A stretch of DNA of 24,000 nt, from NCBI RefSeq assembly GCF_001485475.2, contig NZ_DF977002.1, positions 132,426 through 156,425 of the forward strand, read 5' to 3'. The translations under genes were made by a program, and so were the position numbers. Source of the DNA: Tepidanaerobacter syntrophicus (GTDB taxonomy: Bacteria > Bacillota > Thermosediminibacteria > Thermosediminibacterales > Tepidanaerobacteraceae). Below, piece by piece: positions 9,067-23,813 of this stretch. Every line of letters starts with the position of its first letter. Within the stretch, counting starts at the first letter, position 1. Below the pieces are notes generated by a model. The model ran no database searches and was not told the DNA's origin. It saw nothing but the letters and a program-made list of their open reading frames with translations.

Positions 9067-9067
9067 T

Positions 9068-10442: not shown

Positions 10443-10463
10443 AAACTGCCACCTTCCAATTTT

Positions 10464-10483: not shown

Positions 10484-10485
10484 CA

Positions 10486-10513
10486 ATTGTAGCACGGTTT
10501 TTGATTAAGTCAA
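10486..10513 (-). promoter_or_regulatory. Candidate sigma-A promoter of the arsR-ABC operon
   Basis: Minus strand reads TTGACT (10508-10513), 16 nt including TGc, TACAAT (10486-10491), giving an extended -10 TGcTACAAT. Confidence 0.5.
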
Positions 10514-10672
10514 TGCTTAATTAGTCTATGAGGATTGATTTTTATACTAAATACTAAATTACCACTTACCTGGCAATTTCAGATTTGAAAAATCCAGTAA
10601 ACACATGATAAGTTTAAAATACAGACAGATTTACAACATAAATTACAAATATTTGCTAAGAAGGAGGAAAAT

Positions 10673-10972
10673 ATGACAAAAGAAGAAGTACAGCTCTTGG
10701 CTTTTAAAATCATTGCAAATGCCGGCGAAGCATTAGACTGCTTTTATAATGCTGTTTTGCTGTATAAAGGAAGCAATGAGGACGAGGCTTTGAAAAAACT
10801 AAATCGCGGTAAAGAAATTTTAAATGAGGTGCATAATTTACAAACGGAACTGATACAAGCTGAAGCAAACAATGAAGAAGTGCCATATTCCTTAATAATG
10901 ACACATGCTCAAGACCACTTAAACAGTGCTATAAATTGGGAACGCATGGCAAGTCTATTATTGAAAAATTAA
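10673..10972 (+). CDS. PTS EIIA component, lactose/cellobiose family
   Basis: 99 aa helical protein with the family's MTHAQDHL histidine motif. Perfect RBS AAGGAGG 7 nt upstream. Confidence 0.85.
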   Translation: MTKEEVQLLAFKIIANAGEALDCFYNAVLLYKGSNEDEALKKLNRGKEILNEVHNLQTELIQAEANNEEVPYSLIMTHAQDHLNSAINWERMASLLLKN

Positions 10973-12342
10973 TGGGGGGCTTGATTCACGTGAATAATTT
11001 TTTAGACAAATTCTCTTCTGTAGTAGAAAAGTATCTGTCTCCAATCACCGGAAAGGTTGCTCAAAATAAGTATCTACAAATAATTGCAACTTCATTTATG
11101 ACAATCCTTCCAATAATTTTGATAGGTTCATTTTCTCTAATATTATCAAGGCCTTTTCTTGATTATAATATGCTGGAACCAAACAGTGTTTTATACGGCT
11201 TTTTTAAGGCATGGGCACAGTTTTCTGAGGTATATGGTCCTCATTTGAGTTTCTTATTCGGTATAACATTAGGAAGCCAAGCCTTATACTTGAGTTTAGC
11301 AATAGCTTATAACACAGCGTTAAAAAATGATATGAACACATTTCTTACAATGCTTGTCGCGTTTATATCATTTCTATTGATTAATAGCCAGTATGTGCAG
11401 TGGAATTGGGATACCAGCTATTTTGGAGGAACAGGATTGTTTTCTGCCATTATTACTACGTTTGTTTCAGTAGAGCTGTATCATTGGTTTGTAAAGAAAA
11501 AACTCGGGTATATTAACTTTCCGGATACAGTGCCTGCATCATTGAGGAATTCCCTTGGAAACTTGGTTCCAATAACCCTTATATTTATAATAATGCTGTT
11601 GGGAAGAATACTGCTAGCTGAAGGTTTTAACACTTCTTTCCCTGAAATAATGATGGCAATAGGCAAGCCGCTAAACCTTGCAGTAGATACTATTTGGGGA
11701 ATCTCGCTATCTTCAACGTTTGCACAAATTGGGTGGTGGTTTGGTATTCACAGTAGTGCTATACTATCAGTTGTAATGCCGTCACTTGAGGCAAACACAC
11801 TGGAAAATGCAGCGGCGTATGCTGCGGGTGCATCGTTAAAGCAGCTGCCCAGAATAGTAACTTCACCTTTTTATTTTAATTTTGTTGCAATCGGAGGCGG
11901 AGGCGCTACTTTAGGTTTGGTGTTTTTAATGCTAAGAAGCAAGTCTAAGCAAATACAAACTATAGGCAAGCTTGCTATTGTTCCTGGAATTTTTGGAATA
12001 AACGAGCCGGTTCTCTTTGGTCTACCTATTGTTTTAAACCCTATTTTCCTTATTCCTTTTCTTTTGGCTCAAATTGTAAATATCATTTTATGCTATGTTC
12101 CTATGAGTATGGGATTAATAAATAGGACATTCGTAAATGTAAGTTCTACAGTTCCTGTAGGACTTGGGCAGTTGTTATCAAGTCTTGATTATAAATCACT
12201 GATTTTAACAGTAGTGTGTATTATAGCTGATGTAATAGTGTACTATCCCTTTTTTAAAGTTTATGAAAAACAAAAGCTGCAGGAAGAAGCAAATACGTCA
12301 AATTTAGAAGACGTAGATCTAGAAGAAATAGAAGTTTTATAA
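10972..12342 (+). CDS. PTS EIIC permease, lactose/cellobiose family
   Basis: Polytopic membrane protein with GGGGATLGL and VPGIFGINEPVLFGLPIVLNPIF motifs. ATG 10972 overlaps the EIIA stop (TAATG). GTG 10990 is an alternative start. The 10936 start in the ORF track lies inside EIIA and is unlikely. Confidence 0.9.
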   Translation: MGGLIHVNNFLDKFSSVVEKYLSPITGKVAQNKYLQIIATSFMTILPIILIGSFSLILSRPFLDYNMLEPNSVLYGFFKAWAQFSEVYGPHLSFLFGITLGSQALYLSLAIAYNTALKNDMNTFLTMLVAFISFLLINSQYVQWNWDTSYFGGTGLFSAIITTFVSVELYHWFVKKKLGYINFPDTVPASLRNSLGNLVPITLIFIIMLLGRILLAEGFNTSFPEIMMAIGKPLNLAVDTIWGISLSSTFAQIGWWFGIHSSAILSVVMPSLEANTLENAAAYAAGASLKQLPRIVTSPFYFNFVAIGGGGATLGLVFLMLRSKSKQIQTIGKLAIVPGIFGINEPVLFGLPIVLNPIFLIPFLLAQIVNIILCYVPMSMGLINRTFVNVSSTVPVGLGQLLSSLDYKSLILTVVCIIADVIVYYPFFKVYEKQKLQEEANTSNLEDVDLEEIEVL

Positions 12343-12382
12343 CTTATGCGTGTAACGTTGAAATTTGCAAGGAGGAAAAAAC

Positions 12383-12715
12383 ATGGATGTTTTGTTAGTT
12401 TGTCAGGCAGGTATGAGCACAACAATTATGTGTAAAAAAATACAAGAAGCAGCAGCAAAGATAAACGATCACATAAACATAGTTGCTGCAGGTTTGGAAT
12501 CAATTCCAAAAAGTGCTGAAAATAAGGATATTGTGTTGCTTGCGCCTCAAGTTAAGTATGCAGCCCAAAATATAAGAAAAGAAGTTGACCCGGCTATTCC
12601 AATTATGATAATCAGCCCGGAAGATTATGGGCTAATGAAAGGGGATGCAGTTTACAAAAAGATGAAAAAGGTGCTTGAGTCTAAAGCCGGTGAAAAGGGG
12701 CAAACACAGAAATGA
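12383..12715 (+). CDS. PTS EIIB component, lactose/cellobiose family
   Basis: MDVLLVCQAGMSTT active-site Cys motif. GGAGG at 12371-12375 supports ATG 12383 over TTG 12365. Confidence 0.9.
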   Translation: MDVLLVCQAGMSTTIMCKKIQEAAAKINDHINIVAAGLESIPKSAENKDIVLLAPQVKYAAQNIRKEVDPAIPIMIISPEDYGLMKGDAVYKKMKKVLESKAGEKGQTQK

Positions 12716-14190
12716 AAGTCTTAGCAGGGCATTTTAATTCAGAATCAAATGAACATGCATATCAAAAAATGGGTTTTGAGAATTTTATTTTTAAGTATGG
12801 CGAAGACTCTATAGATGCAATGGGGATAAGAGATATTTTTGAGAACAATAACATAGAAATAATCCCTAGTATTTATGCAAATGGTCATCCAGGCGGTTTA
12901 GTTACAAAAGATGCTTTTGATTTTATTCTGACGCGAATTTTGCATACTTTAAAGAAAAACCTAAGTGAAATTGATGGTATATTTCTTTATCTGCATGGCG
13001 CAAGTAAAGTAGAAGATTTGGAAGGGGATTCCGGAGAGCATAAAATATTAGAAGAAATTAGAAAAATTACCGGTCCGTATCTTCCAATCGCTGTAGTCAT
13101 GGATCCTCACGGCAATCTATCAGAGCAATTTATTGCTAATACAACAATTGTGAGATGCTACAGGCATTCGCCTCATACAGATATACTGGAAACCCACAGA
13201 AAAGTTGCAAAATTATTTGTAGATCTTTTAAAAAATAAAAGGTATCTAACGCCAGTTTATAGAAAGGTCCCTATTATCATTGGCGGCGAGAAATCTGTAT
13301 CAACAGATGAGCCTATGGTATCTATTAATAAATACCTGGATGAAGTGGAAAAGGACGAAAGAATATTATCGGCTTCATTTCATATAGGATACCTTAGGCA
13401 TGATGGGGACAAATTAGGCTGCTCTGTTGTAGTCGTTCCTTGCGATGAAAAACATAAGGAATACGCAAATGAAACTGCTGATAAAATCTATGACTTCGTT
13501 CTTGCGCGGCGATATCAATTTCACTATCATGGAATTGTAGATGAACCTGATAAAGCACTTGAAAGGGCTATTAACCATCAAGGAAGACCGGTATTTCTAA
13601 CCGACTCCGGCGATAATTGCGGAGCAGGGGCAGACGGTTACAGTAATTATGTTTTGCGACAGTGTCTTGATTTAAAAGACTACAACAATAAAACAATTCT
13701 TATAGCTGGAATAGTAGACCAACAAATATATCCTGTCTTATTGAAAAAAGATGTTGGCGAGAAAGTAGAGCTTGATTTGGGAATGGGTTTAGATAAACAA
13801 TCCACAAAGGTTCATATTAAAGGAACGGTTATTTCCAGGGGAGTTGTAGGCAAAGATTACATTAAGCGACCTGATATAGGCTCTGCTATTACTATAAAAT
13901 TAGACAACTACCCAATCAGCGTAATCGTGCTTGGTGAATCTGTAAGTTATACAGAACTGGAGCAATTCAAGTACTCAAATGTAGACATTTTGCAATATGA
14001 TGTAATCGTGGTAAAACAGGGATATATTTCTCCGGATTTTCAGGCAATAAGCCCATTTTGCATAATGTCTCTGACAGATGGACCGACAAACCAGCGAACT
14101 GAAAAATTAGTATTCAAGCGTATTAAACGCCCCATGTTCCCATATGATAATATAGATTATAGGATTGAAGAAAGTAATGTAAATTCGTGA
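12712..14190 (+). CDS. M81 family (MlrC-like) metallopeptidase
   Basis: 492 aa. The pattern LYLHGASKVEDLEGDSGEHKILEEIR...PIAVVMDPHGNLS...CYRHSPHTD...TDSGDNCGAGADG matches my recollection of DUF1485 plus MlrC_C proteins. The start overlaps the EIIB stop (ATGA 12712-12715). Confidence 0.7.
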   Translation: MKVLAGHFNSESNEHAYQKMGFENFIFKYGEDSIDAMGIRDIFENNNIEIIPSIYANGHPGGLVTKDAFDFILTRILHTLKKNLSEIDGIFLYLHGASKVEDLEGDSGEHKILEEIRKITGPYLPIAVVMDPHGNLSEQFIANTTIVRCYRHSPHTDILETHRKVAKLFVDLLKNKRYLTPVYRKVPIIIGGEKSVSTDEPMVSINKYLDEVEKDERILSASFHIGYLRHDGDKLGCSVVVVPCDEKHKEYANETADKIYDFVLARRYQFHYHGIVDEPDKALERAINHQGRPVFLTDSGDNCGAGADGYSNYVLRQCLDLKDYNNKTILIAGIVDQQIYPVLLKKDVGEKVELDLGMGLDKQSTKVHIKGTVISRGVVGKDYIKRPDIGSAITIKLDNYPISVIVLGESVSYTELEQFKYSNVDILQYDVIVVKQGYISPDFQAISPFCIMSLTDGPTNQRTEKLVFKRIKRPMFPYDNIDYRIEESNVNS

Positions 14191-14201
14191 GGAAGATTCA
14201 A

Positions 14202-16070
14202 ATGACTCTTACGGAAAGAGAAAAGAATCTATTGATTCTGTTATTGCAGCATGAAAGGTTGATATGCTCAGTTATTGCAGATCTTTTACAGGTATCTGAA
14301 AAAACTGTCAGAAATGATATTAAGAAAATCAACGCAAATTTTGGCAAGAAGCTTGTTCTTTCGTCTAGGAATGGATATTTTATAAATCCCGAGTACCGCA
14401 GTTTGCTTACAGAAGAGGTTGCAGTCCTTCCTTTTCAAAAAGAGAAAAACTTAAAGGAGATACTTCACTACTTATTTATAAACAATGGCTCTCTTTTTGA
14501 TGATGTAGCAGATAAATTTTATATCTCCTCGTCAACTCTCCAACAGCGGCTAACTGATATAAATGATATGATTAAAAGTTATTCTGTGAAATTTATTAGA
14601 AAAGATGCAAAAATATTTATCGAGGGCAGCGAGAAAGACAGACAACGGCTTCTTGCAATGTTAATCCAAGAGGAAATAAACAACAACTTCGACACAATTA
14701 ATGACCTGGAAAAGTTTTTCCCGAATATTGATGTTACATCCTTCAGGAGAGAAGTCTATCACATCATCGAAGAGGCAAATTACTATGTACCGGAATTTTA
14801 CGAGTCCAATTTATTAATTAATTTACTATCCATATTCACTTTCGACGCTAATTATCAAAATCAAAAATCTTATACCGGCAAATTAAGCAAAGATATAGAA
14901 AAGATTGCTTATAATATTGCTGACAAATTTGGCAGAAAAGACCTTCAAACTCCTATTCAAAACTCGTTGACAGGCGTTATAAAACGAAAAAAACTGTTGG
15001 CTTCTTATGATAATTTAGACGAAAAGTTTGTAAACAAGATTAAAGATATTATTTTGGATGTATTTGAAAGAAATAAGCTTAAAGTTGATTTAAAACAATT
15101 TATAAATGTTTTTTCTCTTCATATATATCAACTAATCTTGCGCTGCAGGCAGGATAAGTACATTCCTCCCCAAGCTATGTTGTCTATAAAAGATAGTTGT
15201 TTTTTTATATATGATATAGCAGTGCAAATTGCTGATAAATTATCTTCTGTCTTTCAAATTGCAATACCTGAATTTGAAATTTCTCTAATCGCGATTCATA
15301 TAGGCTTTGCAATAGAAGAGGCTACAAAACCCAAAGCAGAAAATTTGCATCTAAATATAGCCGTCTTTTTTGAAAATTATACCGTCATCGAAGAGAACTT
15401 TTTAAAAAATATAAACAAGCTAATCCCTCGCCATTCTAATTGCTTCATAGTGCGCAACGCAAAAGAACTATATGAATTAAAAAACTTTGATCTTCTCATC
15501 ACTACAAAAAATATCGATGAGCTTCTTCCATACACTATATGCAAAATAAGCCCTTTTATAAATGAAAACGACATTGCGAAAATAAAAGAGGCAATGAGTA
15601 AAATTATCAAAGAAAAAGAATTCGGCCACTTGACCGAGATGCTCTCTTATTATTTTAGTTCCGATCTCTTCCTCTACACTACTAAGATAAAAAATAGAGA
15701 AGAAGCTTTTAAGGTTATGACAAAAATTATGAAGGAAAAGGGCATAATCGATGAAAGGTTCATAACTTCATTGTATGAAAGAGAGGCGCTTTCATCTACA
15801 GGTTTTATGAATAGCTTTGCCCTCCCTCACTCCTTAGAATACAATGCAGTTTGTTCTAAAATATTCGCATTAGTAAATCCGGAATCCATAAAATGGGGAG
15901 ATGCTCAAGTAAAAATTGTATTTTTGATAGCAATAAGCAGGAAAGATAGGGAAAAAGTAAAACCGCTCTTTGATTTTTTAACTGATATTATGATTGACGA
16001 GCAAAAAATTTATAATTTAAGTAAAGCAATGAACTTTGAAAATTTTATGCAGATCTTGCTGACAAAATAA
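14202..16070 (+). CDS. PRD-domain transcriptional activator (LicR/MtlR-like: HTH, Mga-like HTH, PRD, degenerate EIIB-like, EIIA-2)
   Basis: N-terminal wHTH (LLQVSEKTVRNDIKKIN), PRD histidines (FSLHIYQLILR, LIAIHIGFAIEE) and C-terminal Mtl/Fru-type EIIA with FALPHS. ATG 14202 has GAGGAAG 6 nt upstream. GTG 14187 would overlap the peptidase stop. Confidence 0.85.
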   Translation: MTLTEREKNLLILLLQHERLICSVIADLLQVSEKTVRNDIKKINANFGKKLVLSSRNGYFINPEYRSLLTEEVAVLPFQKEKNLKEILHYLFINNGSLFDDVADKFYISSSTLQQRLTDINDMIKSYSVKFIRKDAKIFIEGSEKDRQRLLAMLIQEEINNNFDTINDLEKFFPNIDVTSFRREVYHIIEEANYYVPEFYESNLLINLLSIFTFDANYQNQKSYTGKLSKDIEKIAYNIADKFGRKDLQTPIQNSLTGVIKRKKLLASYDNLDEKFVNKIKDIILDVFERNKLKVDLKQFINVFSLHIYQLILRCRQDKYIPPQAMLSIKDSCFFIYDIAVQIADKLSSVFQIAIPEFEISLIAIHIGFAIEEATKPKAENLHLNIAVFFENYTVIEENFLKNINKLIPRHSNCFIVRNAKELYELKNFDLLITTKNIDELLPYTICKISPFINENDIAKIKEAMSKIIKEKEFGHLTEMLSYYFSSDLFLYTTKIKNREEAFKVMTKIMKEKGIIDERFITSLYEREALSSTGFMNSFALPHSLEYNAVCSKIFALVNPESIKWGDAQVKIVFLIAISRKDREKVKPLFDFLTDIMIDEQKIYNLSKAMNFENFMQILLTK

Positions 16071-16076
16071 AGGTAC

Positions 16077-16116
16077 AAATAAAAAATAAGGGAATTAAGT
16101 CTTCCCTTATTTTTTA
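16077..16116. terminator. Bidirectional rho-independent terminator shared by the two convergent PTS operons
   Basis: AATAAGGGAA (16085-16094), 7-nt loop, TTCCCTTATT (16102-16111). An A-run lies upstream and a T-run downstream, so a U-tract follows the stem on either strand. It overlaps the last codons of the minus-strand EIIA gene. Confidence 0.6.
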
Positions 16117-16427
16117 TCATCTCCCAGATACTTTTTATGAACTAATAACATCTCATTCGTAATATCTCTTAACAGTTCTGTCGACATCATTTGGTCTTCG
16201 GCATGCATCAATAAAAGAGATAACTCAATTGGCTCTTGGGTTTCCTGCTGCAGCAACTTTGCATGTATTTCATGGGCTTTTAATAGGCTTTCGTCTGCAT
16301 TTTCAATAAGTTTTTCTGCCGCTTTAAAGTCTTCATCCCTGGCAGCTTTTAAAGCTTTAAACAGAAATGATTTCGCATCTCCAACATTACTTATTATTTG
16401 AAAATTTAATAATTCCATACCTTCCAT
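16107..16427 (-). CDS. PTS EIIA component, lactose/cellobiose family
   Basis: 106 aa helical protein with the LLMHAEDQMM histidine motif. Paralog of 10673-10972. Confidence 0.85.
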   Translation of the reverse strand: MEGMELLNFQIISNVGDAKSFLFKALKAARDEDFKAAEKLIENADESLLKAHEIHAKLLQQETQEPIELSLLLMHAEDQMMSTELLRDITNEMLLVHKKYLGDDKK

Positions 16428-16458
16428 ATATCCACCGTCTTTCTATATCTGTTTTAAA

Positions 16459-17424
16459 TTATTCTTTTAATTTTAAAGGAGCTGTTCTTGTCTTCATGTA
16501 ATTATTCATCCATTCTTCTGTAGCAACTTGATAAATCGTTTTATTGTTTTCAACTGAGCACGTATAAACAGTTGGAGGCAATTTTTCGGTAGCTACTACA
16601 AAAGAGAACCCTTCAATATTTGTAGCAGCGCCAAACTCTCCTTTATTGTTGAGGCAAACTACGGATATATCTCCCGCCTTTTGTCTTCTGCTTACAAGCA
16701 GATTAGTAAGTTCGAAGACGGCCTTATCTGCCGCCTCTTGAGGAGTATAGCCCTCCTTCATCAACCTGACTATTTCATAAGAGATACAGCCTTTCATTAT
16801 ATCTTCTCCCAGGCCTGTGGCAGTGGCCCCTCCTATCCTGCTGTCTACATAGAAACCCGAGCCTGATAAAGGAGAATCCCCCACCCTTCCTCTTTTCTTC
16901 ATAAAAAGGCCGCTTGTAGATGTGCCGCTGGCCATAGAATTATCTAAATCAAGAGCAACCATTCCTACAGTGTCGTGGCCGTCGTAGGGGCTCAGTCCTT
17001 TATCTATCGTTTCTTTTAATCTGTTTTTATAATGAATAACGGCTCTTTCGGTAAGCATGTTCATCCTTTCGAATCCATTTTTATGAGCATATTCCTCTGC
17101 GCCGTATCCTACCAAAAATGAATTAAATCTTTCTTCGCTTAACTTTCTGGCTATACTAATGGGATTCTTAAAATCTTTTATCGCCGCAACAGCCCCGATA
17201 GACAGGCTGTCGCCATCCATATATGCTGCATCGAGTTCAACTTCTCCGTTTTCATTGGGCAGACCGCCGTATCCAACAGATTTATAGTAAGGGAAATCTT
17301 CTACCATCTTTATAGCTGTTTCAATGGCATCTCCTGAACTTCCTCCGCCGGAAAGCAGCTTTGCTGATTTTTCAATACCTTCTAAGGCCATTCTCCAGGT
17401 GCCTATAATCGCCCAACTCATACC
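16459..17424 (-). CDS. Ntn-hydrolase of the asparaginase_2 family, glycosylasparaginase-like (N4-(beta-N-acetylglucosaminyl)-L-asparaginase / isoaspartyl peptidase)
   Basis: Autoprocessing and nucleophile motif DGHDTVGMVALD. HDT(I/V)GM is the glycosylasparaginase-type variant. Glycine-rich GSGFYVD and GGATATGLGEDIM are also present. ATG 17424 is preferred because GGAGG lies 7 nt upstream of it. The ORF track start is 17445. Confidence 0.8.
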   Translation of the reverse strand, partial: GMSWAIIGTWRMALEGIEKSAKLLSGGGSSGDAIETAIKMVEDFPYYKSVGYGGLPNENGEVELDAAYMDGDSLSIGAVAAIKDFKNPISIARKLSEERFNSFLVGYGAEEYAHKNGFERMNMLTERAVIHYKNRLKETIDKGLSPYDGHDTVGMVALDLDNSMASGTSTSGLFMKKRGRVGDSPLSGSGFYVDSRIGGATATGLGEDIMKGCISYEIVRLMKEGYTPQEAADKAVFELTNLLVSRRQKAGDISVVCLNNKGEFGAATNIEGFSFVVATEKLPPTVYTCSVENNKTIYQVATEEWMNNYMKTRTAPLKLKE

Positions 17425-17455
17425 ATCGCCTCCGCATCTCTTCATTGTATTTCAC

Positions 17456-18580
17456 CTATTTTGCTAAGTTATATATAGCCTGAGCAAATATCTTGCTGTT
17501 TAATATTATATCCTCTATATCCATATACTCATTTGGATTATGTGAAATTCCTTTCTGTCCAGGGAAAGAAGGTCCGAAAGGCACAATGTTAGGCATTATT
17601 TTTGCATAAGTTCCCCCTGTAGTTGTAACAGGCGTCCCATCTAATTTTGTAACCTCTTCATATGCCTTTTGCAGTGATTTAATCAAAAAAGAATTCTTGT
17701 CGAATTTAACCGGATTATAGTTTAAAAGAAGATTTAATTTTATGTTTTTCGAGAGCTTTGATTTTATTCTTTTTATTATTTCATCGATGCTTACAATCGC
17801 CGGATAGCTTAAGCTAAGATTAAACAGAAATTTGGAATCCTCGATATGAATATTATGGCCTCTCATCTCCATAACGCCAAATTCCTCATCGCTAAAATCA
17901 ATACCCAATCTGTCCCCATTGCTTTTACCGGATAGAATATAATCGTTTAAAAAGCTAAAAAGTTCATCGGCGGCGCTTTTATAGTTTTTGTCATCATAAT
18001 CTATTTCAAATTGGATATTTGCCCTTCCTCTTTCTCCATAGACAACAGGATATTTGCAATCCGGGGTAAAACCCATTATGGGAGGTTTCTCTTTTTTTAA
18101 ATAATATCTAACATCATCAAATCCGCTTTCTTCATCGGTGCCGAATACAATTCTGACTGGTTTACTCAATTTTAGCCGACATTCTTTAATGGCGTATAAA
18201 GCATACAGCGCAGCTAAAATAGGTCCTTTGTTATCTAATACGCCTCTGCCGTATATTTTCCCATCTTCAATGTGTCCGCTAAAAGGAGGAAACTTCCATC
18301 CTTCTCCTGCCGGCACTACATCTAGATGCCCTACAACCCCTATATATTCCTTGCCATCTCCGTACTGAGCATATCCAATGTAATTATCTAGATTATTTGT
18401 TTTAAAGCCTAAATTCTCTGCTATATCCAATGTCACAAATAGAGCTTTTTTTATCTCGTTTCCAAAGGGAGCATTATCCTTTGGTTCATCTTTGATGCTG
18501 GGTATATTGACCACTTCTATTATAGACTTTAATAATTCTTCCTTATGTTCATCAATTTTATTATTTAAATCCTGTTCCAT
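17456..18580 (-). CDS. M20A family dipeptidase, PepV/Sapep-like with a short lid domain
   Basis: GVVGHLDVVPAGEGW, GRGVLDNKGP, FGTDEESG, GFTPDCKYPVVYGERG and C-terminal TTGGTYAK...SHNPNEYM. At 374 aa it is about 90 aa shorter than my recollection of PepV (~470 aa). Confidence 0.85.
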   Translation of the reverse strand: MEQDLNNKIDEHKEELLKSIIEVVNIPSIKDEPKDNAPFGNEIKKALFVTLDIAENLGFKTNNLDNYIGYAQYGDGKEYIGVVGHLDVVPAGEGWKFPPFSGHIEDGKIYGRGVLDNKGPILAALYALYAIKECRLKLSKPVRIVFGTDEESGFDDVRYYLKKEKPPIMGFTPDCKYPVVYGERGRANIQFEIDYDDKNYKSAADELFSFLNDYILSGKSNGDRLGIDFSDEEFGVMEMRGHNIHIEDSKFLFNLSLSYPAIVSIDEIIKRIKSKLSKNIKLNLLLNYNPVKFDKNSFLIKSLQKAYEEVTKLDGTPVTTTGGTYAKIMPNIVPFGPSFPGQKGISHNPNEYMDIEDIILNSKIFAQAIYNLAK

Positions 18581-18608
18581 TTTTAAGTCTCCATCGTAAA
18601 AGTTGAGA

Positions 18609-18639
18609 TATGAGGTAGCCTTTGCAGAGCTACCTCATA
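18609..18639 (-). other. Strong intercistronic RNA hairpin (11-bp perfect stem), function unknown (SECIS-like or stability element)
   Basis: Minus strand reads TATGAGGTAGC-UCUGCAAAG-GCTACCTCATA. The loop can add C-G and U-A pairs, leaving a bulged U and a GCAA tetraloop. No U-tract follows. Confidence 0.8.
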
Positions 18640-18646
18640 AATATCT

Positions 18647-19168
18647 TCAATAGCATATTTTCTTTGCCAGTTCCTCTATGTCCTTTTTATCAAACATTTT
18701 TCGTGCTAATACGCAGATATTATTTAATGATTCACTTAATCCTATGCCTCCCTTTTTGGGCATCTTAACAATATGCAGCGCATCCTTGTATTCTGAAATA
18801 ATATCTTCGTTTTCCTTTGACATAGCGGCTACAACCGGTATATCTGTTTTGTCTTTTAAGTTTTTACCAATAACGGCACACATATATGCATATCCTTTGT
18901 AGTTATACGCAGGTCCGCAGATAACTACATCAGGATTTATTTTTTTCACCATAGCAGTCATTTTTTTAGTTACTACTTCTTCGTTTTCTTTAAAATAATC
19001 ATTGCCGCAATACAAGCAAGCTACGATTTCACCATCTACATTTTTAAGATGAGGCTCGATCATGGGAGCCGAACCTATTGATCCTTTTTTACCTCCCGGA
19101 GGAAGATCCGATCTTTCCTTGCCTCCCATTCCTGCTTGTATTTGGTCAAATATCATCAAAACCTTCAT
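18647..19168 (-). CDS. GrdB N-terminal-domain-like protein (glycine/sarcosine/betaine reductase component B family, short form)
   Basis: 173 aa. IFDQIQAGMGGKE, CGNDYF and ICGPAYNYKGYAYMCAVIG parallel the N-terminal NQFF.GIGGEEKA / CGD.YF / AGPAFNAGRYG pattern that I recall for GrdB. It contains a CLYC (CxxC) motif. It lacks the C-terminal two-thirds of GrdB and ends ...KKICY-TGA. Confidence 0.55.
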   Translation of the reverse strand: MKVLMIFDQIQAGMGGKERSDLPPGGKKGSIGSAPMIEPHLKNVDGEIVACLYCGNDYFKENEEVVTKKMTAMVKKINPDVVICGPAYNYKGYAYMCAVIGKNLKDKTDIPVVAAMSKENEDIISEYKDALHIVKMPKKGGIGLSESLNNICVLARKMFDKKDIEELAKKICY

Positions 19169-19230
19169 ATTAACCTTTTAACCTCCAGTTTACTGCCGTC
19201 GCCGGCAACTGACCTTATCGTATCGCAATC

Positions 19231-20577
19231 TTAAATATCATCTAAAGATAAATCGTCAAACGAAATATCCTCTAACTCATCTTCTTCGCTCTGATTCTCT
19301 TCGTCTTTTAGGTAACTCTTATCGAGTATCTTTATGAACGGGTAATATACGAAGCAGCCTAAAATCAGTAATAGAACTTGGAATGCCGATGCTTTTAAAC
19401 TGCCTGTCGACAAATATCCCGAAAAGCCCAAGGGTGTTGTCCACGGCAGCGAAACACCATTAGTATAAGGCAAAAATCCTGTTTCAAAGGCTATTGCCGA
19501 TAAAATTGTATTCATCAAAGGTACCCCTATAAAAGGTATAATCATTACAGGATTTAGCACGATTGGCAAACCAAATATAATAGGTTCATTAATTCCAAAA
19601 ATACCCGGTACAATCGACAATTTTCCTAATTGTTTAATCCTTTCTGATTTACAAACTGTCACCATAAGAATAACCAAAGAAAGGGTGCTTCCGCCGCCTC
19701 CAAATGTTTGAAAGAGATCAACAAATTGCCCTGTGTATATATGAGGTAATGGCAGTCCCGCTTCAAAAGCTGCTAAGTTTTCCATTGATAAAGTTCTAAA
19801 TATTGGCGAAAAAACTGAATTTGCCACTGCAGGTCCGTTTATTCCAAAGAACCAGAAAACAGAGCATGATACAACATATACAATTTGTGCTCCTAAACTG
19901 TTCCCAACTCCCATTAGCGGAGCTTGCAGCACAGTATATATGAAATTATGCGCAGATTCATATGGAGTAAGCTCAAACCCGATTCTTACCAAGAAAAATA
20001 CAAACATTACTAGAAAACTTGGTATTAAAGCTGCAAATGAATCAAAAACAGCAGGCGGTACTCCATGGGGAAGTTTTATAGTCCAGCCCTTTTTGTATCC
20101 CCAGTTGAATATTCGAACTGATAAAATCGAAACGAGCATTGCCAAAAATATTCCATTTGTTCCTATATAGGAGAAGCCTATAGCCCTTACAAAAGATGGC
20201 CCTTCTACGCCTTCATATGGAATTGCCGTAGGCATTAAGATTATAAAAGATACCAGTGAAACAATTGCTCCTTGTATTTTGTCTGCTCCTATTTCTCTAG
20301 CATAAGCATATCCTATGCCCACTACTGTTAATATTGATATGATATCAAAAGTCGCTCGTGCAACGTTAGAAAAGTATGATTCCCAACCTACTCCAAATAT
20401 TTTTGCCCAAAACTCTGACCAGCCCGGCACTGGAAAGTTTGCAAATAATATAAACATAGAACCGACAATGATTACCGGAGTGGAAATTAGAAATCCATCA
20501 CGTATAGCAACTAAAATCTTGTTTTTGCCCAGCATATCCGCAATAGGCATTAGAGCTTTTTCTAGCTTATTAAGCAT
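19231..20577 (-). CDS. PTS EIIC permease, lactose/cellobiose family
   Basis: 448 aa polytopic protein with GGGGSTLSL and VPGIFGINEPIIFGLPIVLNPVM motifs and an acidic C-terminal tail. Paralog of 10972-12342. RBS GAGGGGAG. Confidence 0.9.
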   Translation of the reverse strand: MLNKLEKALMPIADMLGKNKILVAIRDGFLISTPVIIVGSMFILFANFPVPGWSEFWAKIFGVGWESYFSNVARATFDIISILTVVGIGYAYAREIGADKIQGAIVSLVSFIILMPTAIPYEGVEGPSFVRAIGFSYIGTNGIFLAMLVSILSVRIFNWGYKKGWTIKLPHGVPPAVFDSFAALIPSFLVMFVFFLVRIGFELTPYESAHNFIYTVLQAPLMGVGNSLGAQIVYVVSCSVFWFFGINGPAVANSVFSPIFRTLSMENLAAFEAGLPLPHIYTGQFVDLFQTFGGGGSTLSLVILMVTVCKSERIKQLGKLSIVPGIFGINEPIIFGLPIVLNPVMIIPFIGVPLMNTILSAIAFETGFLPYTNGVSLPWTTPLGFSGYLSTGSLKASAFQVLLLILGCFVYYPFIKILDKSYLKDEENQSEEDELEDISFDDLSLDDI

Positions 20578-20579
20578 TG

Positions 20580-20912
20580 TTATTCTCCCCTCTTTTTATG
20601 ATTTTTCATAAGTAATATTGCTTTCTTTAAAACTCTCTCTCCATCCATCATCCCATAATCAGCGGAATCAATAACTCCAACCGGAACATTATAGTTTTCT
20701 AACCTTTTTTTGGTATCATCGAATAAATGGCTGACTTGAGGACCCAGCAAAATACAATCGGGATTCTTTTCTTCCATAATTTTTTCTAAAGTTTTAATTG
20801 AATGAGCCTTTACTTCTAGGGGTAAATTGTGTTTTTCCCCTATATCTTGCATCCTTTTAGCAAGCATGCTTGTGCTCATTCCTTGATCGCAAAATAGATA
20901 AATCTTTTTCAT
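20580..20912 (-). CDS. PTS EIIB component, lactose/cellobiose family
   Basis: MKKIYLFCDQGMSTS active-site Cys motif. RBS AGAGGTGA. Two nucleotides separate it from EIIC. Confidence 0.9.
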   Translation of the reverse strand: MKKIYLFCDQGMSTSMLAKRMQDIGEKHNLPLEVKAHSIKTLEKIMEEKNPDCILLGPQVSHLFDDTKKRLENYNVPVGVIDSADYGMMDGERVLKKAILLMKNHKKRGE

Positions 20913-20975
20913 TTATATTCACCTCTATCATTGTTTTAATCATATTAATTGCAATTATTGGTGGTCTTTTTGTGC

Positions 20976-21455
20976 TTAAAACTTGGATTTAGTATGTGCA
21001 TAATTGCAAATCAGTCGGGCTATTTCTTTCTTTGTATCAGCATCTAACAACTTCTTTACGGCTTCTACATCTCCTAATGAAGAAAACAGCTGTCCTATCA
21101 TCTTCAATCCTTGCCCCATTTCATCGCCTTCGGGAATAACAAACATAATAATAAGCTTCACTAAATTTCCTTTTTCATCCCAAACAATAGAATCCTTTGT
21201 TTTTAAGACAACTGCCGCTGTTCTAACTACATGTTTGGACCAGCCGTGAGGAATCGCCAAATAATCTCCTGCAAAGGTGAAACCTCTACTTTCTCTTTCG
21301 TATATATCTTTTAAAAAACCTGGTTTATCCGAAACAGCTCCCAGCTCTACCAGTAATTCCGCAAGTTTATCTATGGCTTCTTCCTTGGAACTTACATTAC
21401 AGTCTATAAGAATATTGTCCTCAGTGATTAAACCTTTATTTTTCATATTGCCCAT
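20976..21455 (-). CDS. Stand-alone PTS EIIA-2 (mannitol/fructose/Ntr type) protein
   Basis: 159 aa with the DYLAIPHG phosphohistidine motif and a complete domain length. ATG 21446 is an alternative start (AAGGA 8 nt upstream). It overlaps the regulator stop by 20 nt, or by 11 nt from the alternative start. Confidence 0.85.
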   Translation of the reverse strand: MGNMKNKGLITEDNILIDCNVSSKEEAIDKLAELLVELGAVSDKPGFLKDIYERESRGFTFAGDYLAIPHGWSKHVVRTAAVVLKTKDSIVWDEKGNLVKLIIMFVIPEGDEMGQGLKMIGQLFSSLGDVEAVKKLLDADTKKEIARLICNYAHTKSKF

Positions 21456-23253
21456 CCTTATTCAATCCTTCTCTTATCAAAAGTCTTATAAGATTTGATA
21501 AATAAGTATAATTAGAATAGTTGATGGCAATTATATATCTTTCTGCGCCTTTTTTCTTGATTGAATATCTCTTAACCGAGTTTTCTTTTTCCGCCTTAAG
21601 GTATAAATAGATATTGTCTTTGATACGGATTAGCCCATCTTCAATAAATAAGCTTTTAATCTCCCCTATCTCCTTTGTTTCATCGATAAACTTTAAAGAA
21701 ATGTCTTCACACTCTAAGGAAGAAGATTTTCTCTTATTTTCTAGTATATTCTCTATATAAATTTTTACATTTTCTTTATCTATCTCATTCAAAAAAGCCG
21801 ATACCATTAAATAAGGTTTATTTATATCCAAATCTACTGTGGAAATTATCAAATCTACTTTTTCTAAATCTGCATTGTTAATCGCATTAGATGAAATTAT
21901 CCCTGAAATTTCGATATTGCTGAAGGTCTTTGCCAATCTTGTAGCCAATAATCTGCTGGTGCCATAGCCGCTATGGCATATTACTACTGTTCGTACCTTT
22001 ATGGCACTGGCCATTTTTTCATTTTCGGAAATAAAATAGGATAGAATATATGCCACTTCATGATCGTTTATCATATTTACTCCGTATCTGTTGCAGAGTA
22101 AAAAGCAGCCAACTTTTACTATAAAAAATTCTTCTTTAAATTCTCTTAAGAAATCATCCAATAAAGGATTTGTAATTTGAATATTGTATTTTGCCCTGTT
22201 GAGCATAGGTCTTACATGCAGCAATAATTTATCGTATAAATCAAGGCTTAGATCGTAATTGACATTTAGCATTTGAGATATAATGCTTATTAAATCCTTG
22301 GTAAAATATACATAAGATAAATCAGATTCTTTAATGCATTTTTTATCATCTTCAAAACTTAGTCCGACAGATATTAGATATTTATACACATAAACAATTT
22401 CTTGTTTGTTAATCTTGATATCAAATTTCTTTTCTATTTCCTTGATCAAATATACGGCAGCGTCATACAGTCTTTCGTTTATTGCTAGCGTTGAATTATT
22501 GTAATCTGGATTATCTTCAATATAATTTCCATTGATTATCCTATTAGTCATAATAGCTAAATGGCTCAGCAGATTGGTGTAATAGGGTTCATAGATTACC
22601 AGCTTCAATTCATTTTCTAGGTGGTTTAGCAGCTCTTCGAAAAAGGAGAGAGATTCATCGCTTAAAATAGTATTAATTTCGGCGATATTAAGTTCCTTGT
22701 GTCGAATATTTTGATATTCGGATATATAGCTAGGATTGATTTTGGCATACTCTTGAATAGTCGAAACCAAGGCTTTTCTAATGTTTATTTCGCTGCCAAT
22801 TATTCTGGTTCCCTTCAAGGTTTTTGAAAGCTGCAAGTTGTACCTATCTAATCTTTTTTGAACCTCTTTTAAATCGTTATTAATGGAGGTCCTGCTGACC
22901 ATATATTTATCTGAAAGTTTCTGTATTGTGGTGTACTTGTTTGTATTTATAAGTAGATTTAACAGGATTTCGGTTCTTCTGTCTTCTACAGCCTTATCGC
23001 CGTCAAGAAGTGATATATCATTCAATATTTCGTTTAGTTTATCTAGTTGAGGCAAGGCATAGCATAACTTAATTCCCCTGCCTTGTTTCCTCTCTATTTT
23101 GACACCGATGGGATTTATTATTTCCTCAATATCATCAAGGTCCTTTGATATTGTTTTCACCGATGTCCCAAATATATTAGAAAAATATCTTATTGGCTGA
23201 TAATCATCTTGAATTATTAGTTTTTTTAGTAAATCTACTTGTCGTTTATTCAT
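21436..23253 (-). CDS. PRD-domain transcriptional activator (HTH, Mga-like HTH, PRD1, PRD2, EIIB-Gat-like) lacking an EIIA domain
   Basis: 605 aa. wHTH (FGTSVKTISKDLDDIEE), PRD histidines (LLSHLAIMTNR, LLLHVRPMLNR) and EIIB-like RTVVICHSGYGTS. The last ~95 aa contain no histidine. Confidence 0.85.
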   Translation of the reverse strand: MNKRQVDLLKKLIIQDDYQPIRYFSNIFGTSVKTISKDLDDIEEIINPIGVKIERKQGRGIKLCYALPQLDKLNEILNDISLLDGDKAVEDRRTEILLNLLINTNKYTTIQKLSDKYMVSRTSINNDLKEVQKRLDRYNLQLSKTLKGTRIIGSEINIRKALVSTIQEYAKINPSYISEYQNIRHKELNIAEINTILSDESLSFFEELLNHLENELKLVIYEPYYTNLLSHLAIMTNRIINGNYIEDNPDYNNSTLAINERLYDAAVYLIKEIEKKFDIKINKQEIVYVYKYLISVGLSFEDDKKCIKESDLSYVYFTKDLISIISQMLNVNYDLSLDLYDKLLLHVRPMLNRAKYNIQITNPLLDDFLREFKEEFFIVKVGCFLLCNRYGVNMINDHEVAYILSYFISENEKMASAIKVRTVVICHSGYGTSRLLATRLAKTFSNIEISGIISSNAINNADLEKVDLIISTVDLDINKPYLMVSAFLNEIDKENVKIYIENILENKRKSSSLECEDISLKFIDETKEIGEIKSLFIEDGLIRIKDNIYLYLKAEKENSVKRYSIKKKGAERYIIAINYSNYTYLSNLIRLLIREGLNKDGQYEK

Positions 23254-23403
23254 AATTCAATAATCCTCTCTAATTAAGATTATATATGTATATATTCTTC
23301 GAATCTATTACATATGACTTCCTTAACGATAAGTAAAATATGTTCAGTGAAAACCTAAAACCTAACGAGTTTGGGATTTCTCCTAATAAAATTTATATTA
23401 ACA

Positions 23404-23456: not shown

Positions 23457-23813
23457 ATGATTTTAACAAGAATATTCAAGTTTGATGCAGCTCATAACCT
23501 TGTAGAATATCATGGAAAATGTGAAAGGCTCCATGGACATACTTATAAGCTTGTAGTTAAATTAGAGGGCAAGCCGGGAAAAGAAGATATGATTATGGAT
23601 TTTTCTGAGCTAAAACGCATTGTTGAATCCACAATATTGCAGCAGCTAGACCACTCCTATCTGAATGACTTTATAAAACAACCTTCTGCAGAAAACATCT
23701 CAAGATGGATTTGGGACAGACTATATAATGAATTATCCAGAGAAAACTGCCGACTTTATGAAATCCAGGTTTGGGAAACTGAAAATTGTGGAGTCACATA
23801 CAGGGGTGAATGA
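23457..23813 (+). CDS. queD: 6-carboxy-5,6,7,8-tetrahydropterin synthase (QueD)
   Basis: 118 aa. FDAAHNL...HGKCERLHGHTYKL is the Cys-x3-His-Gly-His zinc/catalytic motif of the PTPS/QueD family. RBS AGGAGGG. Confidence 0.9.
   Translation: MILTRIFKFDAAHNLVEYHGKCERLHGHTYKLVVKLEGKPGKEDMIMDFSELKRIVESTILQQLDHSYLNDFIKQPSAENISRWIWDRLYNELSRENCRLYEIQVWETENCGVTYRGE

Follow-up and report, generated by a model that had tools for sequence, protein, structure and literature searches.

A split-regulator operon of Tepidanaerobacter syntrophicus probably orthologous to the enterococcal ega locus for GlcNAc-Asn use

The window analyzed here, a stretch of 24,000 nucleotides of Tepidanaerobacter syntrophicus DNA, contains an operon of eight genes running from 23253 to 16107 on the minus strand. 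With a probability of about three in four we regard this operon as orthologous to the enterococcal ega locus and as serving the use of GlcNAc-β-Asn, a glyco-amino acid left over from glycoproteins, and probably of very short glycopeptides too. The type of pathway has already been described for ega of Enterococcus; the T. syntrophicus operon is set apart by its regulator, its own EIIA and its intact GrdB-like gene.

Families were assigned by Pfam and NCBIfam profile matches, and every gene named in a first-pass annotation of this DNA was found on the minus strand where it had been placed. The annotation had listed intergenic gaps of 63, 2, 62, 66, 31 and 31 nt. Five of these values were reproduced, and the measured series is 63, 2, 62, 66, 10 and 31 nt; the fifth gap, between the M20 peptidase and the Ntn hydrolase genes, amounts to 10 nt from the first ATG of the hydrolase gene and to 34 nt from Met9. 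Similarly the 3′ end at about 16.1 kb was confirmed, but the 5′ start had to be moved upstream: the gene of a PRD regulator (21436–23253) overlaps the EIIA_2 gene (20976–21455) by 20 nt and belongs to the PTS operon. At the 3′ end a strong bidirectional intrinsic terminator (16077–16115, both strands) with U-tracts on each strand overlaps the stop codon of the last gene, which encodes an EIIA, and is shared with a convergent plus-strand PTS operon. The minus-strand fold has an energy of −15.2 kcal/mol (z = −5.0), the plus-strand fold one of −13.8 kcal/mol (z = −3.8). It had been proposed that no U-tract terminator occurs before 16.1 kb, and indeed the minus-strand matches are found only inside the EIIC gene and at chance level (five terminator-like matches on both strands together versus 4.5 expected).

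A GrdB-like gene is carried by 245 species genomes, and for the analysis of synteny we used the best 80 of these loci, all from different species of Firmicutes. In this set EIIC lies directly 5′ of the GrdB-like gene in 78 of 80 loci, and within the DNA retrieved 71 of the 80 contain the Ntn hydrolase and 72 the M20 peptidase. This association is far beyond chance, and the module of EIIB, EIIC and GrdB-like protein together with Ntn hydrolase and M20 peptidase recurs in most of the best 80 genomes. The Enterococcus and Vagococcus loci have the order GntR-M20 ... Ntn-EIIB-EIIC-GrdB-like, which is the published ega layout. Among the related cassettes one (L030) carries a GH4 and a YdjC gene, and two others (L081, L082) carry two M42 aminopeptidases each.

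These Enterococcus and Vagococcus species with the published ega order, and not the E. faecalis proteins themselves, were the basis of the orthology comparison; the window proteins are 52–63% identical to those of the Enterococcus-genus ega-type loci, the M20 peptidase being the exception with 41%. The EIIB (20580–20912, minus strand; 110 aa; PF02302, 61.6 bits) is of the Lac/Cel/chitobiose type, has its active-site cysteine within LFCDQGMSTS and shares 52% identity with the Enterococcus ega-type EIIB and 33% with its paralogue within the window. For the EIIC of the Lac/Cel family (19231–20577, minus strand; 448 aa; TIGR00410, 411.9 bits, cutoff 236) the corresponding values are 63% and 31%, the latter with the other EIIC of the window. 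This EIIC is the proposed GlcNAc-Asn permease and by sequence appears to be an orthologue of EgaC. The Lac/Cel-type EIIA (16107–16427, minus strand; 106 aa; PF02255, 102 bits) is the cognate EIIA of the operon's transporter, and a Lac-type EIIA is found inside the cassette in 56 of the best 80 loci.

Downstream of EIIC follows the gene of the GrdB-N-terminal-like protein (18647–19168, minus strand; 173 aa; NF041545 'GrdB_like_no_Se', 261.7 bits, cutoff 175). The protein is devoid of selenocysteine and spans positions 3–164 of the 347 positions of the GRDB profile. An AF2 model (pLDDT 97.8) has a flavodoxin-like α/β fold, for which no significant neighbour was found in the PDB. Judged by its conservation this EgaD-like protein appears to be a conserved partner of the EIIC subfamily of the operon. 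In the gap between the GrdB-like and the M20 genes a hairpin (18609–18639, minus strand) of −20.7 kcal/mol (z = −4.6) lacking a U-tract is predicted. A hairpin of −10 kcal/mol or lower within 60 nt 3′ of the GrdB-like stop codon was found in 72 of 81 sequences, with differing stem sequences, and the window hairpin gave no match in Rfam. It is likely a leaky terminator or a 3′ stabiliser closing the transport module.

The Ntn hydrolase (16459–17421, minus strand; Asparaginase_2, PF01112, 220 bits) is of the glycosylasparaginase type and similar to EgaG and AsnA2. It comprises 320 aa when started at Met9 (17421) and 328 aa from an upstream ATG at 17445; the former agrees with the homologues, which have 319–320 aa, and is also the start chosen in three of the four public gene calls. 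The nucleophile context HDTVGM noted earlier is located at residues 157–162, with H-D-T as the autoproteolytic and nucleophile site. This context had been described as the one of glycosylasparaginases, in contrast to the GTVGAV of plant-type asparaginases and IaaA. The best solved relative is the Elizabethkingia glycosylasparaginase with 219 bits (E = 7e-64), compared to at most 132 bits for isoaspartyl peptidases and asparaginases and about 71 bits for Taspase. The NCBI name of its homologues is N(4)-(beta-N-acetylglucosaminyl)-L-asparaginase. The equivalents of W11, T152, G172, R180, D183 and T203/G204 are invariant; the residues whose mutation abolishes the activity of the Elizabethkingia meningoseptica enzyme EmAGA (PMC13204146) are all kept. 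With EmAGA (1ayy, 2gaw, 1p4k) the window enzyme has the fold family and the H-D-T site in common at about 42% identity. Unlike EmAGA it is cytoplasmic, has an Arg after the sugar-stacking Trp (TWRMA versus TWNFG in EmAGA) and FMKK in place of AYKM, and is extended at the C-terminus by about 38 aa, as are the Enterococcus-genus proteins. These sequence features may be related to a 6-phosphorylated substrate.

The second hydrolase (17456–18580, minus strand; 374 aa) is a Peptidase_M20 of the PepV/Sapep subfamily (Sapep TIGR01887, 375.7 bits, cutoff 208) that stays below both PepV equivalog cutoffs. The PepV hallmark had been given as GFTPD..P....ERG. The motif is present and reads GFTPDCKYPVVYGERG, however with three and not two residues from D to P. 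A lid about 90 aa shorter than in PepV had also been claimed, and in the alignment with PepV (1lfw) about 88 residues are absent: residues 9–199 correspond to PepV 9–202 and residues 222–374 to PepV 313–466, with the metal ligands kept across both blocks. PepV 203–312 is lacking and thus N217 and H269 as well, and R350 of PepV is aligned with a Ser. A PepV-like dipeptidase activity is therefore not assured. With PepV of L. delbrueckii and Sapep of S. aureus (3ki9) the protein has the catalytic domain, the metal ligands and the GFTPD...P....ERG region in common; unlike these, it resembles in overall size and collinearity DapE (7uoi) and other two-domain M20 enzymes. Collinear proteins of the 374-aa form are encoded in about 60 loci; the Enterococcus and Vagococcus form has about 430 aa. 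By homology the protein is probably the counterpart of EgaP and PepV. That it trims residual amino acids is a hypothesis, here as in the literature, where a pepV mutant of L. casei grew normally on 6′FN-Asn (PMC6960285).

The first-pass suggestion that a GlcNAc-Asn-like conjugate is taken up and phosphorylated by the PTS and then cleaved at the amide to aspartate and a phospho-amino-sugar is supported by homology and synteny with ega. Substrate, phosphorylation, reaction order, peptidase role and regulatory logic are what we infer. Uptake of the conjugate by EIIA(Lac), EIIB and EIIC would go along with phosphorylation of its sugar at C6, with the GrdB-like protein as the conserved partner of the EIIC subfamily. 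The cytoplasmic glycosylasparaginase, self-activated by Asp|Thr cleavage, would hydrolyse the N4-amide to L-aspartate and 6-phospho-GlcNAc-glycosylamine, and the glycosylamine would lose ammonia and enter the GlcNAc-6-P pathway. A flanking amino acid would probably be removed by the short-lid M20 peptidase, leaving the Asn with the free α-amino and α-carboxyl groups which the amidase needs. Aspartate as a product fits the cassettes of C. disporicum, which additionally carry an aspartase-like lyase and a fumarase.

T. syntrophicus is a syntroph of thermophilic anaerobic digesters and is not host-associated, so that the natural source of glycosyl-Asn could differ. Possibly the same machinery handles another substrate, namely Glc-Asn, GalNAc-Asn, chitobiosyl-Asn or a short glycopeptide from archaeal, bacterial or eukaryotic digester glycoproteins, and the operon is then a specificity variant of ega. 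Besides the thermophilic digester habitat, this would be consistent with the EIIC being just 63% identical to the enterococcal one and with the residue following the sugar-stacking Trp and several more being unlike those of the Elizabethkingia enzyme; the GH4 and YdjC genes or the paired M42 aminopeptidases of related cassettes suggest larger or variant substrates. However, the core gene set is identical to that of ega, and TWRMA, FMKK and the C-terminal extension are common to the Enterococcus-genus proteins and do not set the hydrolase apart from the ega type. We judge a different substrate to be unlikely.

Considerably less probable is a PTS for a chitobiose- or cellobiose-type β-linked disaccharide of GlcNAc or glucose, with the Ntn hydrolase and the M20 peptidase as an unrelated pair for the salvage of isoaspartyl peptides or asparagine. 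Against the cellobiose EIIC model (cutoff 434) the EIIC scores 411.9 bits and so narrowly misses it; it stays below both the cellobiose and the chitobiose equivalog cutoffs of NCBIfam. In two loci (L051, L059) a MupG/GH170-type 6-phospho-glycosidase follows the EIIC-GrdB-like module and replaces the amidase, so the substrate range of the EIIC subfamily is not fixed. The sole named NCBIfam match of the Ntn hydrolase is beta-aspartyl-peptidase, yet it scores 127 bits where the cutoff is 567, and the protein is far nearer to glycosylasparaginase. Moreover, there is no glycosidase among the operon genes, both hydrolases accompany EIIC in about 70 of the best 80 genomes, and GlcNAc-Asn use has been shown for the orthologous enterococcal system.

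The PRD-containing regulator of the MtlR/LicR type (21436–23253, minus strand; 605 aa) has HTH, Mga, two PRD and EIIB-like domains (Pfam HTH_11, Mga, PRD as two stretches, and PTS_IIB). An EIIA domain was not found in it by Pfam. The stand-alone EIIA_2 of the Mtl/Fru/Ntr type encoded next (20976–21455, minus strand; 159 aa; PF00359, 109 bits) has the phospho-His motif AIPHG. Regulator orthologues of 59–79% identity take the equivalent position in L001–L003 and L008. The split of regulator and EIIA_2 recurs in six other genomes (L001, L002, L003, L008, L025, L027) and is also kept in four independent T. syntrophicus-type assemblies; in the cassette regulators of L050, L030, L072 and L059 (629–647 aa) the EIIA_2 domain is fused, as is an EIIA(Mtl)-like domain in the regulator of the neighbouring operon in the window. 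Given the fused form of other lineages and the recurrence of the split, the 159-aa protein probably represents the C-terminal regulatory domain detached from the PRD regulator and not a second transporter EIIA. Of the two EIIA types reported for the operon both proteins are present, but the Mtl/Fru type is probably the split-off regulator domain. Lac-type EIIA proteins serve Lac-type EIIB proteins, and a permease fed by two EIIA classes with the Mtl/Fru type as a true second phosphoryl donor is highly improbable in spite of the separate polypeptide, its intact AIPHG histidine motif and its predicted co-transcription with the PTS genes, because the operon already encodes the Lac-type EIIA for its EIIB, the regulator overlapping the EIIA_2 gene lacks exactly this domain, and other cassette lineages and the neighbouring operon have it fused to the regulator.

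Upstream of the regulator gene we found a candidate promoter with an activator-binding site (23279–23343, minus strand). A 42-nt element at 23302–23343, ACATATTTTACTTATCGTTAAGGAAGTCATATGTAATAGATT, is followed by a spacer of 17 nt and TATAAT at 23279–23284, with the ATG of the regulator 25 nt further downstream. In L001, L002, L003 and L008 a nearly invariant copy of the element stands 5′ of the orthologous split regulator, between flanks that cannot be aligned. The element occurs once in the window (0 chance matches expected), and its core is confined to the split-regulator type in the 87 loci scanned. It is the most likely site at which the PRD regulator with its separate EIIA(Mtl)-like polypeptide would control expression of the operon.

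PRD activators of the MtlR/LicR/CelR type have the same set of HTH, Mga, PRD, PRD, EIIB-like and EIIA(Mtl)-like domains, and like them the T. syntrophicus regulator adjoins a Lac/Cel-family PTS operon. Unlike in these activators, an overlapping gene of its own encodes the EIIA(Mtl)-like domain as a polypeptide of 159 aa, and this split is kept in several genera.

In lactobacilli PepV is genetically linked with glycosylasparaginase genes (PMC6960285). The alf-2 cluster of Lacticaseibacillus casei/paracasei (alfHC, asdA, alfR2, pepV, asnA2, sugK) serves the catabolism of an N-glycan core glyco-amino acid, and glycopeptide trimming has been proposed for its PepV (PMC6960285). As in the window, genes of a glycosylasparaginase and a PepV-like M20 protein are paired. 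Unlike the window operon, alf-2 relies on uptake by an MFS permease and on phosphorylation of GlcNAc by the kinase SugK after cleavage, and has a fucosidase, an aspartate decarboxylase, a GntR regulator and no GrdB-like gene.

The closest known system is the ega locus of E. faecalis (egaRP/egaGBCD1D2; Combret et al. 2023, Res Microbiol 175:104169), for which PTS uptake of GlcNAc-Asn and cleavage by a glycosylasparaginase have been shown, as described in PMC11549559 and PMC11976118. Its parts are the glycosylasparaginase EgaG, a dipeptidase, EIIB and EIIC of the Lac/Cel type and a GrdB-related gene. The window operon has the same five parts, including the GrdB-related gene directly 3′ of EIIC and the M20 dipeptidase. 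The ega locus has the GntR repressor EgaR and the window operon a split PRD-type regulator. The GlcNAc-L-Asn PTS of E. faecalis works with a Cel-type EIIA, CelA1, borrowed from the cel locus and acting in trans (PMC11976118), whereas the window operon encodes its EIIA(Lac) itself. The order also differs from that described for ega, with PTS, GrdB-like, M20, Ntn and EIIA genes in a single transcription unit, and the M20 protein is about 60 aa shorter than the Enterococcus-genus ega-type protein. Finally, the GrdB-like gene, which is a pseudogene in E. faecalis OG1RF, is intact in the window, whose host is, unlike E. faecalis, a thermophilic, non-host-associated anaerobe.

Eight tightly packed genes on the minus strand of the window span 23253-16107. 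According to their Pfam and NCBIfam matches they encode, in this order, a PRD-type regulator (605 aa), an Mtl/Fru-type EIIA (EIIA_2, 159 aa) whose gene overlaps the stop of the regulator gene by 20 nt, an EIIB (20580-20912) and an EIIC (19231-20577), both of the Lac/Cel type, a protein of 173 aa that corresponds to the N-terminal half of GrdB (18647-19168), an M20 peptidase of 374 aa (17456-18580), an Asparaginase_2 Ntn hydrolase and a Lac-type EIIA. In the first-pass annotation the gene gaps had been given as 63, 2, 62, 66, 31 and 31 nt. Five of these values are right; the fifth gap, between the M20 and the Ntn hydrolase gene, measures 10 nt and becomes 34 nt when the Ntn hydrolase starts at Met9 (16459-17421) and not at the upstream ATG (17445). 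We prefer the start at Met9 since it fits the homologues of 319-320 aa and three of the four public gene calls. A terminator scan of the window found no convincing terminator within the operon, in line with the earlier statement that none occurs before 16.1 kb. A bidirectional terminator lies at 16077-16115, with folding energies of -15.2 kcal/mol on the minus strand and -13.8 kcal/mol on the plus strand, and is common to the operon studied here and to the convergent plus-strand operon. It was overlooked by the simple scan and recognised by reading and folding the sequence.

The Ntn hydrolase matches PF01112 at 220 bits. Compared with all solved structures it is closest to the entries of the Elizabethkingia meningoseptica glycosylasparaginase (EmAGA; 219 bits, E = 7e-64, residues 13-288), the next relatives being human ASRGL1-type isoaspartyl peptidase/asparaginases (132 bits), the EcAIII precursor of E. 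coli (125 bits) and Taspase (71 bits). By these sequence scores the enzyme is nearer to the characterised glycosylasparaginases than to IaaA/EcAIII, ASRGL1, plant asparaginases or Taspase, and the difference between 219 and at most 132 bits bears out its initial classification as glycosylasparaginase-type and not as a plain asparaginase or isoaspartyl type. The HDTVGM motif on which this classification had been based is present at residues 157-162 and coincides in the alignment with H150-D151-T152 of EmAGA, that is, with the autoproteolytic site with the threonine as N-terminal nucleophile. In an alignment of the window protein with proteins of Elizabethkingia, Clostridium, Tissierellales, Enterococcus, Vagococcus and Pediococcus, no variation was seen at the equivalents of W11, H150-D151-T152, G172, R180, D183 and T203-G204; compared with EmAGA, T169 is replaced by Ser, and E48, T64 and Q254 are not conserved. 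It has been shown that EmAGA is disabled by mutating W11, T152, G172, R180, D183 or G204, and that the E48A and T64A variants keep 54% and 40% of the activity, respectively (PMC13204146). Public databases name close homologues of the window protein N(4)-(beta-N-acetylglucosaminyl)-L-asparaginase. The Firmicutes proteins differ from the Elizabethkingia enzyme in carrying TWRMA instead of TWNFG and FMKK instead of AYKM, and in a C-terminal extension of ~38 aa which the Elizabethkingia enzyme lacks. We suggest that these three features may help to accommodate a 6-phosphate.

The M20 peptidase had been likened to PepV with a lid domain shortened by about 90 aa. The PepV hallmark is present as GFTPDCKYPVVYGERG, with one residue more between D and P than in the motif as first written down. 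Judged by sequence alignment alone, the lid is indeed shortened: residues 9-199 correspond to residues 9-202 and residues 222-374 to residues 313-466 of the L. delbrueckii PepV (1lfw), and ~88 lid residues of PepV have no counterpart in this two-block alignment. The binuclear metal ligands and the catalytic Glu of PepV are kept: residues H85, D116, E150/E151, D174 and H347 align to H87, D119, E153/E154, D177 and H439 of PepV (1lfw). The segment 203-312 of PepV, with N217 and H269, is absent, and R350 of PepV aligns to Ser. Thus, in contrast to PepV, where a full lid of ~200 aa supplies N217, H269 and R350, the window enzyme is without a full-size lid. Its sequence runs collinear with that of M20 enzymes of two domains, for example DapE (7uoi), and the 374-aa short-lid form is kept in ~60 of the homologous loci. 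With 375.7 bits against a cutoff of 208 the protein exceeds the threshold of TIGR01887, the subfamily of the S. aureus relative Sapep, and it stays under the PepV equivalog cutoffs of NF005591 (381 versus 435) and TIGR01886 (266 versus 632). That this enzyme might trim Asn(GlcNAc) dipeptides is a reasonable proposal. In L. casei the glycosylasparaginase AsnA2 is linked to a PepV-like gene, and the authors proposed that PepV trims glycopeptides, since the alpha-amino and alpha-carboxyl groups have to be free for glycosylasparaginases to act; the L. casei pepV mutant showed normal growth on 6'FN-Asn (PMC6960285).

The GrdB-like gene begins 62 nt 3' of the EIIC gene. Its product, 100% identical to a protein named from Tepidanaerobacter syntrophicus, scores 261.7 bits against NF041545 (cutoff 175) and covers only positions 3-164 of the 347 positions of the GRDB profile. 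GrdB selenoprotein B has ~430 aa, a selenocysteine and grdA/E/C/D genes as neighbours; the window protein has none of these features, and no grd genes are found in the window. The gene ends with a TGA codon (18647-18649) which shares its frame with the M20 open reading frame (18580) 69 nt downstream; a second TGA follows three codons past the stop and a SECIS-looking hairpin begins 8 nt downstream. Read-through of the TGA as selenocysteine was considered and rejected, as the homologues stop at TAA (63), TAG (10) or TGA (7), and the GrdB-like protein is not a selenoprotein. The predicted model is a flavodoxin-like alpha/beta domain (pLDDT 97.8) with the conserved residues D8, Q9, Q11, G13, G15, K17, C54, C84 (nearly invariant), G85, P86 and K139 in its loops. 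A structural comparison of the model with the PDB gave no significant neighbour, the protein has no solved sequence relative, and a literature search found nothing relevant on the function of the small GrdB-like protein.

Directly 3' of the GrdB-like gene a hairpin of -20.7 kcal/mol is found at 18609-18639 (minus strand). We compared the 60 nt that follow the stop codon of the GrdB-like gene in the window and in L001-L080, homologous loci from other genomes which each have a GrdB-like gene, and observed a counterpart hairpin in 72 of the 81 sequences. The stems differ in sequence, many being of the form GGTAGNCT...AGNCTACC, some are followed by a U-tract, and no Rfam family matches the hairpins. 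Because this conserved hairpin closes the GrdB-like gene, the EIIB-EIIC-GrdB-like module seems to form a unit of its own.

When one genome per species was scanned with the GrdB-like alignment, 245 genomes proved to have a relative. The best 80 of these 245 loci were examined by searching them with the window proteins, whereby the Ntn hydrolase was counted at an identity of at least 50%. Among these best 80 loci the EIIC gene lies directly upstream of the GrdB-like gene in 78, the M20 peptidase is present in 72, EIIB and the Ntn hydrolase in 71 each and the Lac-type EIIA in 56; nine loci lack the Ntn hydrolase, and five of these are truncated contigs. L051 and L059 have a MupG/GH170-type 6-phospho-glycosidase (10453-11664 and 10571-11671, respectively) after an EIIA-EIIB-EIIC-GrdB-like module, in place of the amidase and the M20 peptidase. 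In L032 the module is followed by two M42 aminopeptidases (10627-12731), a pair which also occurs in the cassettes of Candidatus E. murrayae (L081) and Clostridium disporicum (L082), and in Romboutsia timonensis (L030) the module stands with GH4 plus YdjC (5846-7904). The stable transport module, consisting of EIIB, EIIC, the GrdB-like gene and the hairpin, pairs with exchangeable enzyme modules.

Since the module also precedes MupG-type or M42 enzymes, the GrdB-like protein goes with the permease and not with the asparagine chemistry. It is probably not essential, because its gene is a pseudogene in E. faecalis OG1RF, a strain reported to use GlcNAc-Asn. We give somewhat less than even odds, roughly 0.4, to the reading that the GrdB-like protein, which occurs in at least 245 species, is an obligatory, uncharacterised component of a whole Lac/Cel-type PTS permease subfamily for beta-GlcNAc conjugates. 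In this reading it might serve as a PTS accessory factor of a new kind, or act enzymatically on the phosphorylated GlcNAc moiety, and would not be an "oxidoreductase".

Some cassettes contain further genes. In C. disporicum a class I fumarase of two subunits and a Lyase_1 protein (aspartase/fumarase C-like) are encoded at 14360-17627, and a sigma-54/PRD (LevR-like) regulator gene lies between the peptidase genes and the Ntn hydrolase gene. The lyase and the fumarase would fit aspartate as a product which is channelled to fumarate and malate. A gene for an RDD-family membrane protein is located just upstream of EIIB in many cassettes, for instance in L001 (7641-8222), in C. sartagoforme L050 (7233-7826), in L059 (7274-7891) and in L082 (7582-8181). 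The window has no such gene; its EIIA_2 and EIIB genes are only 63 nt apart.

The regulator of the operon is composed of HTH, Mga, two PRD and an EIIB-like domain and is without the EIIA_2 domain that ends the MtlR/LicR-type regulators. The MtlR/LicR domain set is complete, but it is spread over two polypeptides of 605 and 159 aa. EIIA_2 is fused to the regulator of the neighbouring plus-strand operon and likewise to the cassette regulators (629-647 aa) of C. sartagoforme, Romboutsia timonensis, L072 and L059. A split form, with one protein of 564-606 aa and one of 139-158 aa, is found again in L001, L002, L003, L008, L025 and L027. The overlap of the regulator and EIIA_2 genes might be taken for a frameshift or a sequencing error. 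We rejected this explanation, as the split, together with the same gene order, is found in four independent T. syntrophicus-type assemblies (one NCBI contig and three metagenome contigs) and recurs in six other genomes. Because the regulator lacks the domain, which is fused in the neighbouring regulator and in other cassettes, and because the split is recurrent, the best reading of the Mtl/Fru-type EIIA is that of a C-terminal domain which has been detached from the PRD regulator. The Lac-type EIIA is the transporter's own EIIA and matches the Lac-type EIIB and EIIC. Thus the first-pass annotation was right in seeing genes for two EIIA types, but the pattern of split and fusion argues against the Mtl/Fru-type protein as a transporter EIIA. 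Such an Mtl-type "EIIA" is likely to be misread as a transporter component in annotation, and it is corrected here to a regulator domain. Next to the GrdB-like protein, a PRD regulator that is split and has its EIIA(Mtl) module free would be a novelty of lesser weight.

Upstream of the regulator gene we found a 42-nt element (23302-23343). In an alignment of the window with four other split-regulator genomes (L001, L002, L003 and L008) the element is almost invariant, and the flanking DNA does not align. It occurs once in the window, and its core was seen only in those split-regulator loci. The element holds an imperfect dyad (ACATAT...ACTT / AAGT...ATATGT). On its 3' side come, after a spacer of 17 nt, a TATAAT box and then a ribosome-binding site; element, spacer and box together occupy 23279-23343 on the minus strand. 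We regard the element as a site to which the PRD regulator may bind and which would overlap a weak -35 box. The operon would be autoregulated and would start at about 23.3 kb. The operon bounds had originally been set at 16107-21455; the 3' end agrees with the terminator at 16077-16115, but the 5' end has to be moved, given the overlapping regulator gene and the candidate promoter at about 23.3 kb, outside that range.

Convergent with the ega-like operon is a second PTS operon of the Lac/Cel family (10673-16070, plus strand). It encodes an EIIA (10673-10972), an EIIC (10936-12342), an EIIB (12365-12715), an M81 metallopeptidase (MlrC-like, DUF1485 plus MlrC_C; 12712-14190) and the PRD regulator with fused EIIA_2 (14187-16070). 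A PTS with an M81 peptidase and without a glycosidase suggests another pathway for a sugar-peptide conjugate; our literature search found no report of such a combination, and this operon may be more novel than the ega-like operon. The minus strand further carries a type I restriction-modification system (871-8244) with hsdR (871-3858), a DUF5655 gene (3878-4801), hsdS (4802-6139) and hsdM (6136-8244), an ArsR-family regulator with an ABC-2 exporter pair (8332-10442) and a GGDEF diguanylate cyclase (42-719). A QueD/PTPS gene on the plus strand (23457-23813) heads a folate/pterin gene group in the genome.

The ega (enterococcal glycosylasparaginase) locus of E. faecalis was defined by Combret et al. 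2023. As described in PMC11549559, OG1RF_10935 is EgaG, an N4-(beta-GlcNAc)-L-asparaginase, followed by EIIB and EIIC of a lactose/cellobiose PTS and, after EIIC, by a pseudogene of a putative oxidoreductase, for which the reference given is Wagner et al. 1999 on GrdB; OG1RF_10933 and 10934 are a GntR regulator and a dipeptidase with their own promoter. The GlcNAc-L-Asn PTS is served by the Cel-type EIIA CelA1 (PMC11976118). Orthology was measured on other Enterococcus and Vagococcus species with the published gene order, as stand-ins for E. faecalis OG1RF_10933-10939. This order, GntR-M20 ... Ntn-EIIB-EIIC-GrdB-like, is found in Enterococcus phoeniculicola, Candidatus E. murrayae and Vagococcus fluvialis. 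Among the best 120 matches listed to the Enterococcus Ntn homologue E. faecalis proteins are absent; those listed come from other enterococci and from vagococci. The window EIIC and EIIB are 63% and 52% identical to those of Candidatus E. murrayae, compared with 31% and 33% for the paralogues in the window. The respective values are 56% for the Ntn hydrolase, 55% for the GrdB-like protein and 41% for the M20 peptidase, which has 433 aa in Candidatus E. murrayae. EgaG, as studied by Combret and colleagues, reportedly forms aspartate and 6-P-N-acetyl-glucosaminylamine.

This orthology to an experimentally studied system supports the idea, put forward from inspection of the sequence, of PTS uptake of a GlcNAc-Asn-like compound followed by amide cleavage, and by homology and gene order the window locus is assigned to the known ega-type system and not to a new one. 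The GlcNAc-Asn PTS pathway, so far described as a virulence-associated trait by which a pathogen scavenges host glycoproteins, is widespread in Firmicutes, and its cassette reaches a thermophilic syntroph of anaerobic digesters. With such a distribution, glyco-amino acids may serve quite generally as a nutrient where anaerobic habitats are rich in protein.

To sum up the comparison, the ega locus and the window have in common a glycosylasparaginase-type Ntn hydrolase, a Lac/Cel-type EIIB and EIIC, a GrdB-related gene after EIIC and an M20 peptidase. The two differ in their regulation: E. faecalis uses the GntR repressor EgaR, and a GntR gene is also located upstream of the M20 gene in Candidatus E. 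murrayae, whereas the window has no GntR gene and carries the split PRD regulator. Furthermore, the ega system relies on the Cel-type EIIA CelA1 encoded elsewhere and is organised in two transcription units, while in the window the EIIA is encoded in the operon, which forms a single tightly packed unit. Finally, the GrdB-related gene of the ega locus is a pseudogene in OG1RF, whereas the copy in the window is intact.
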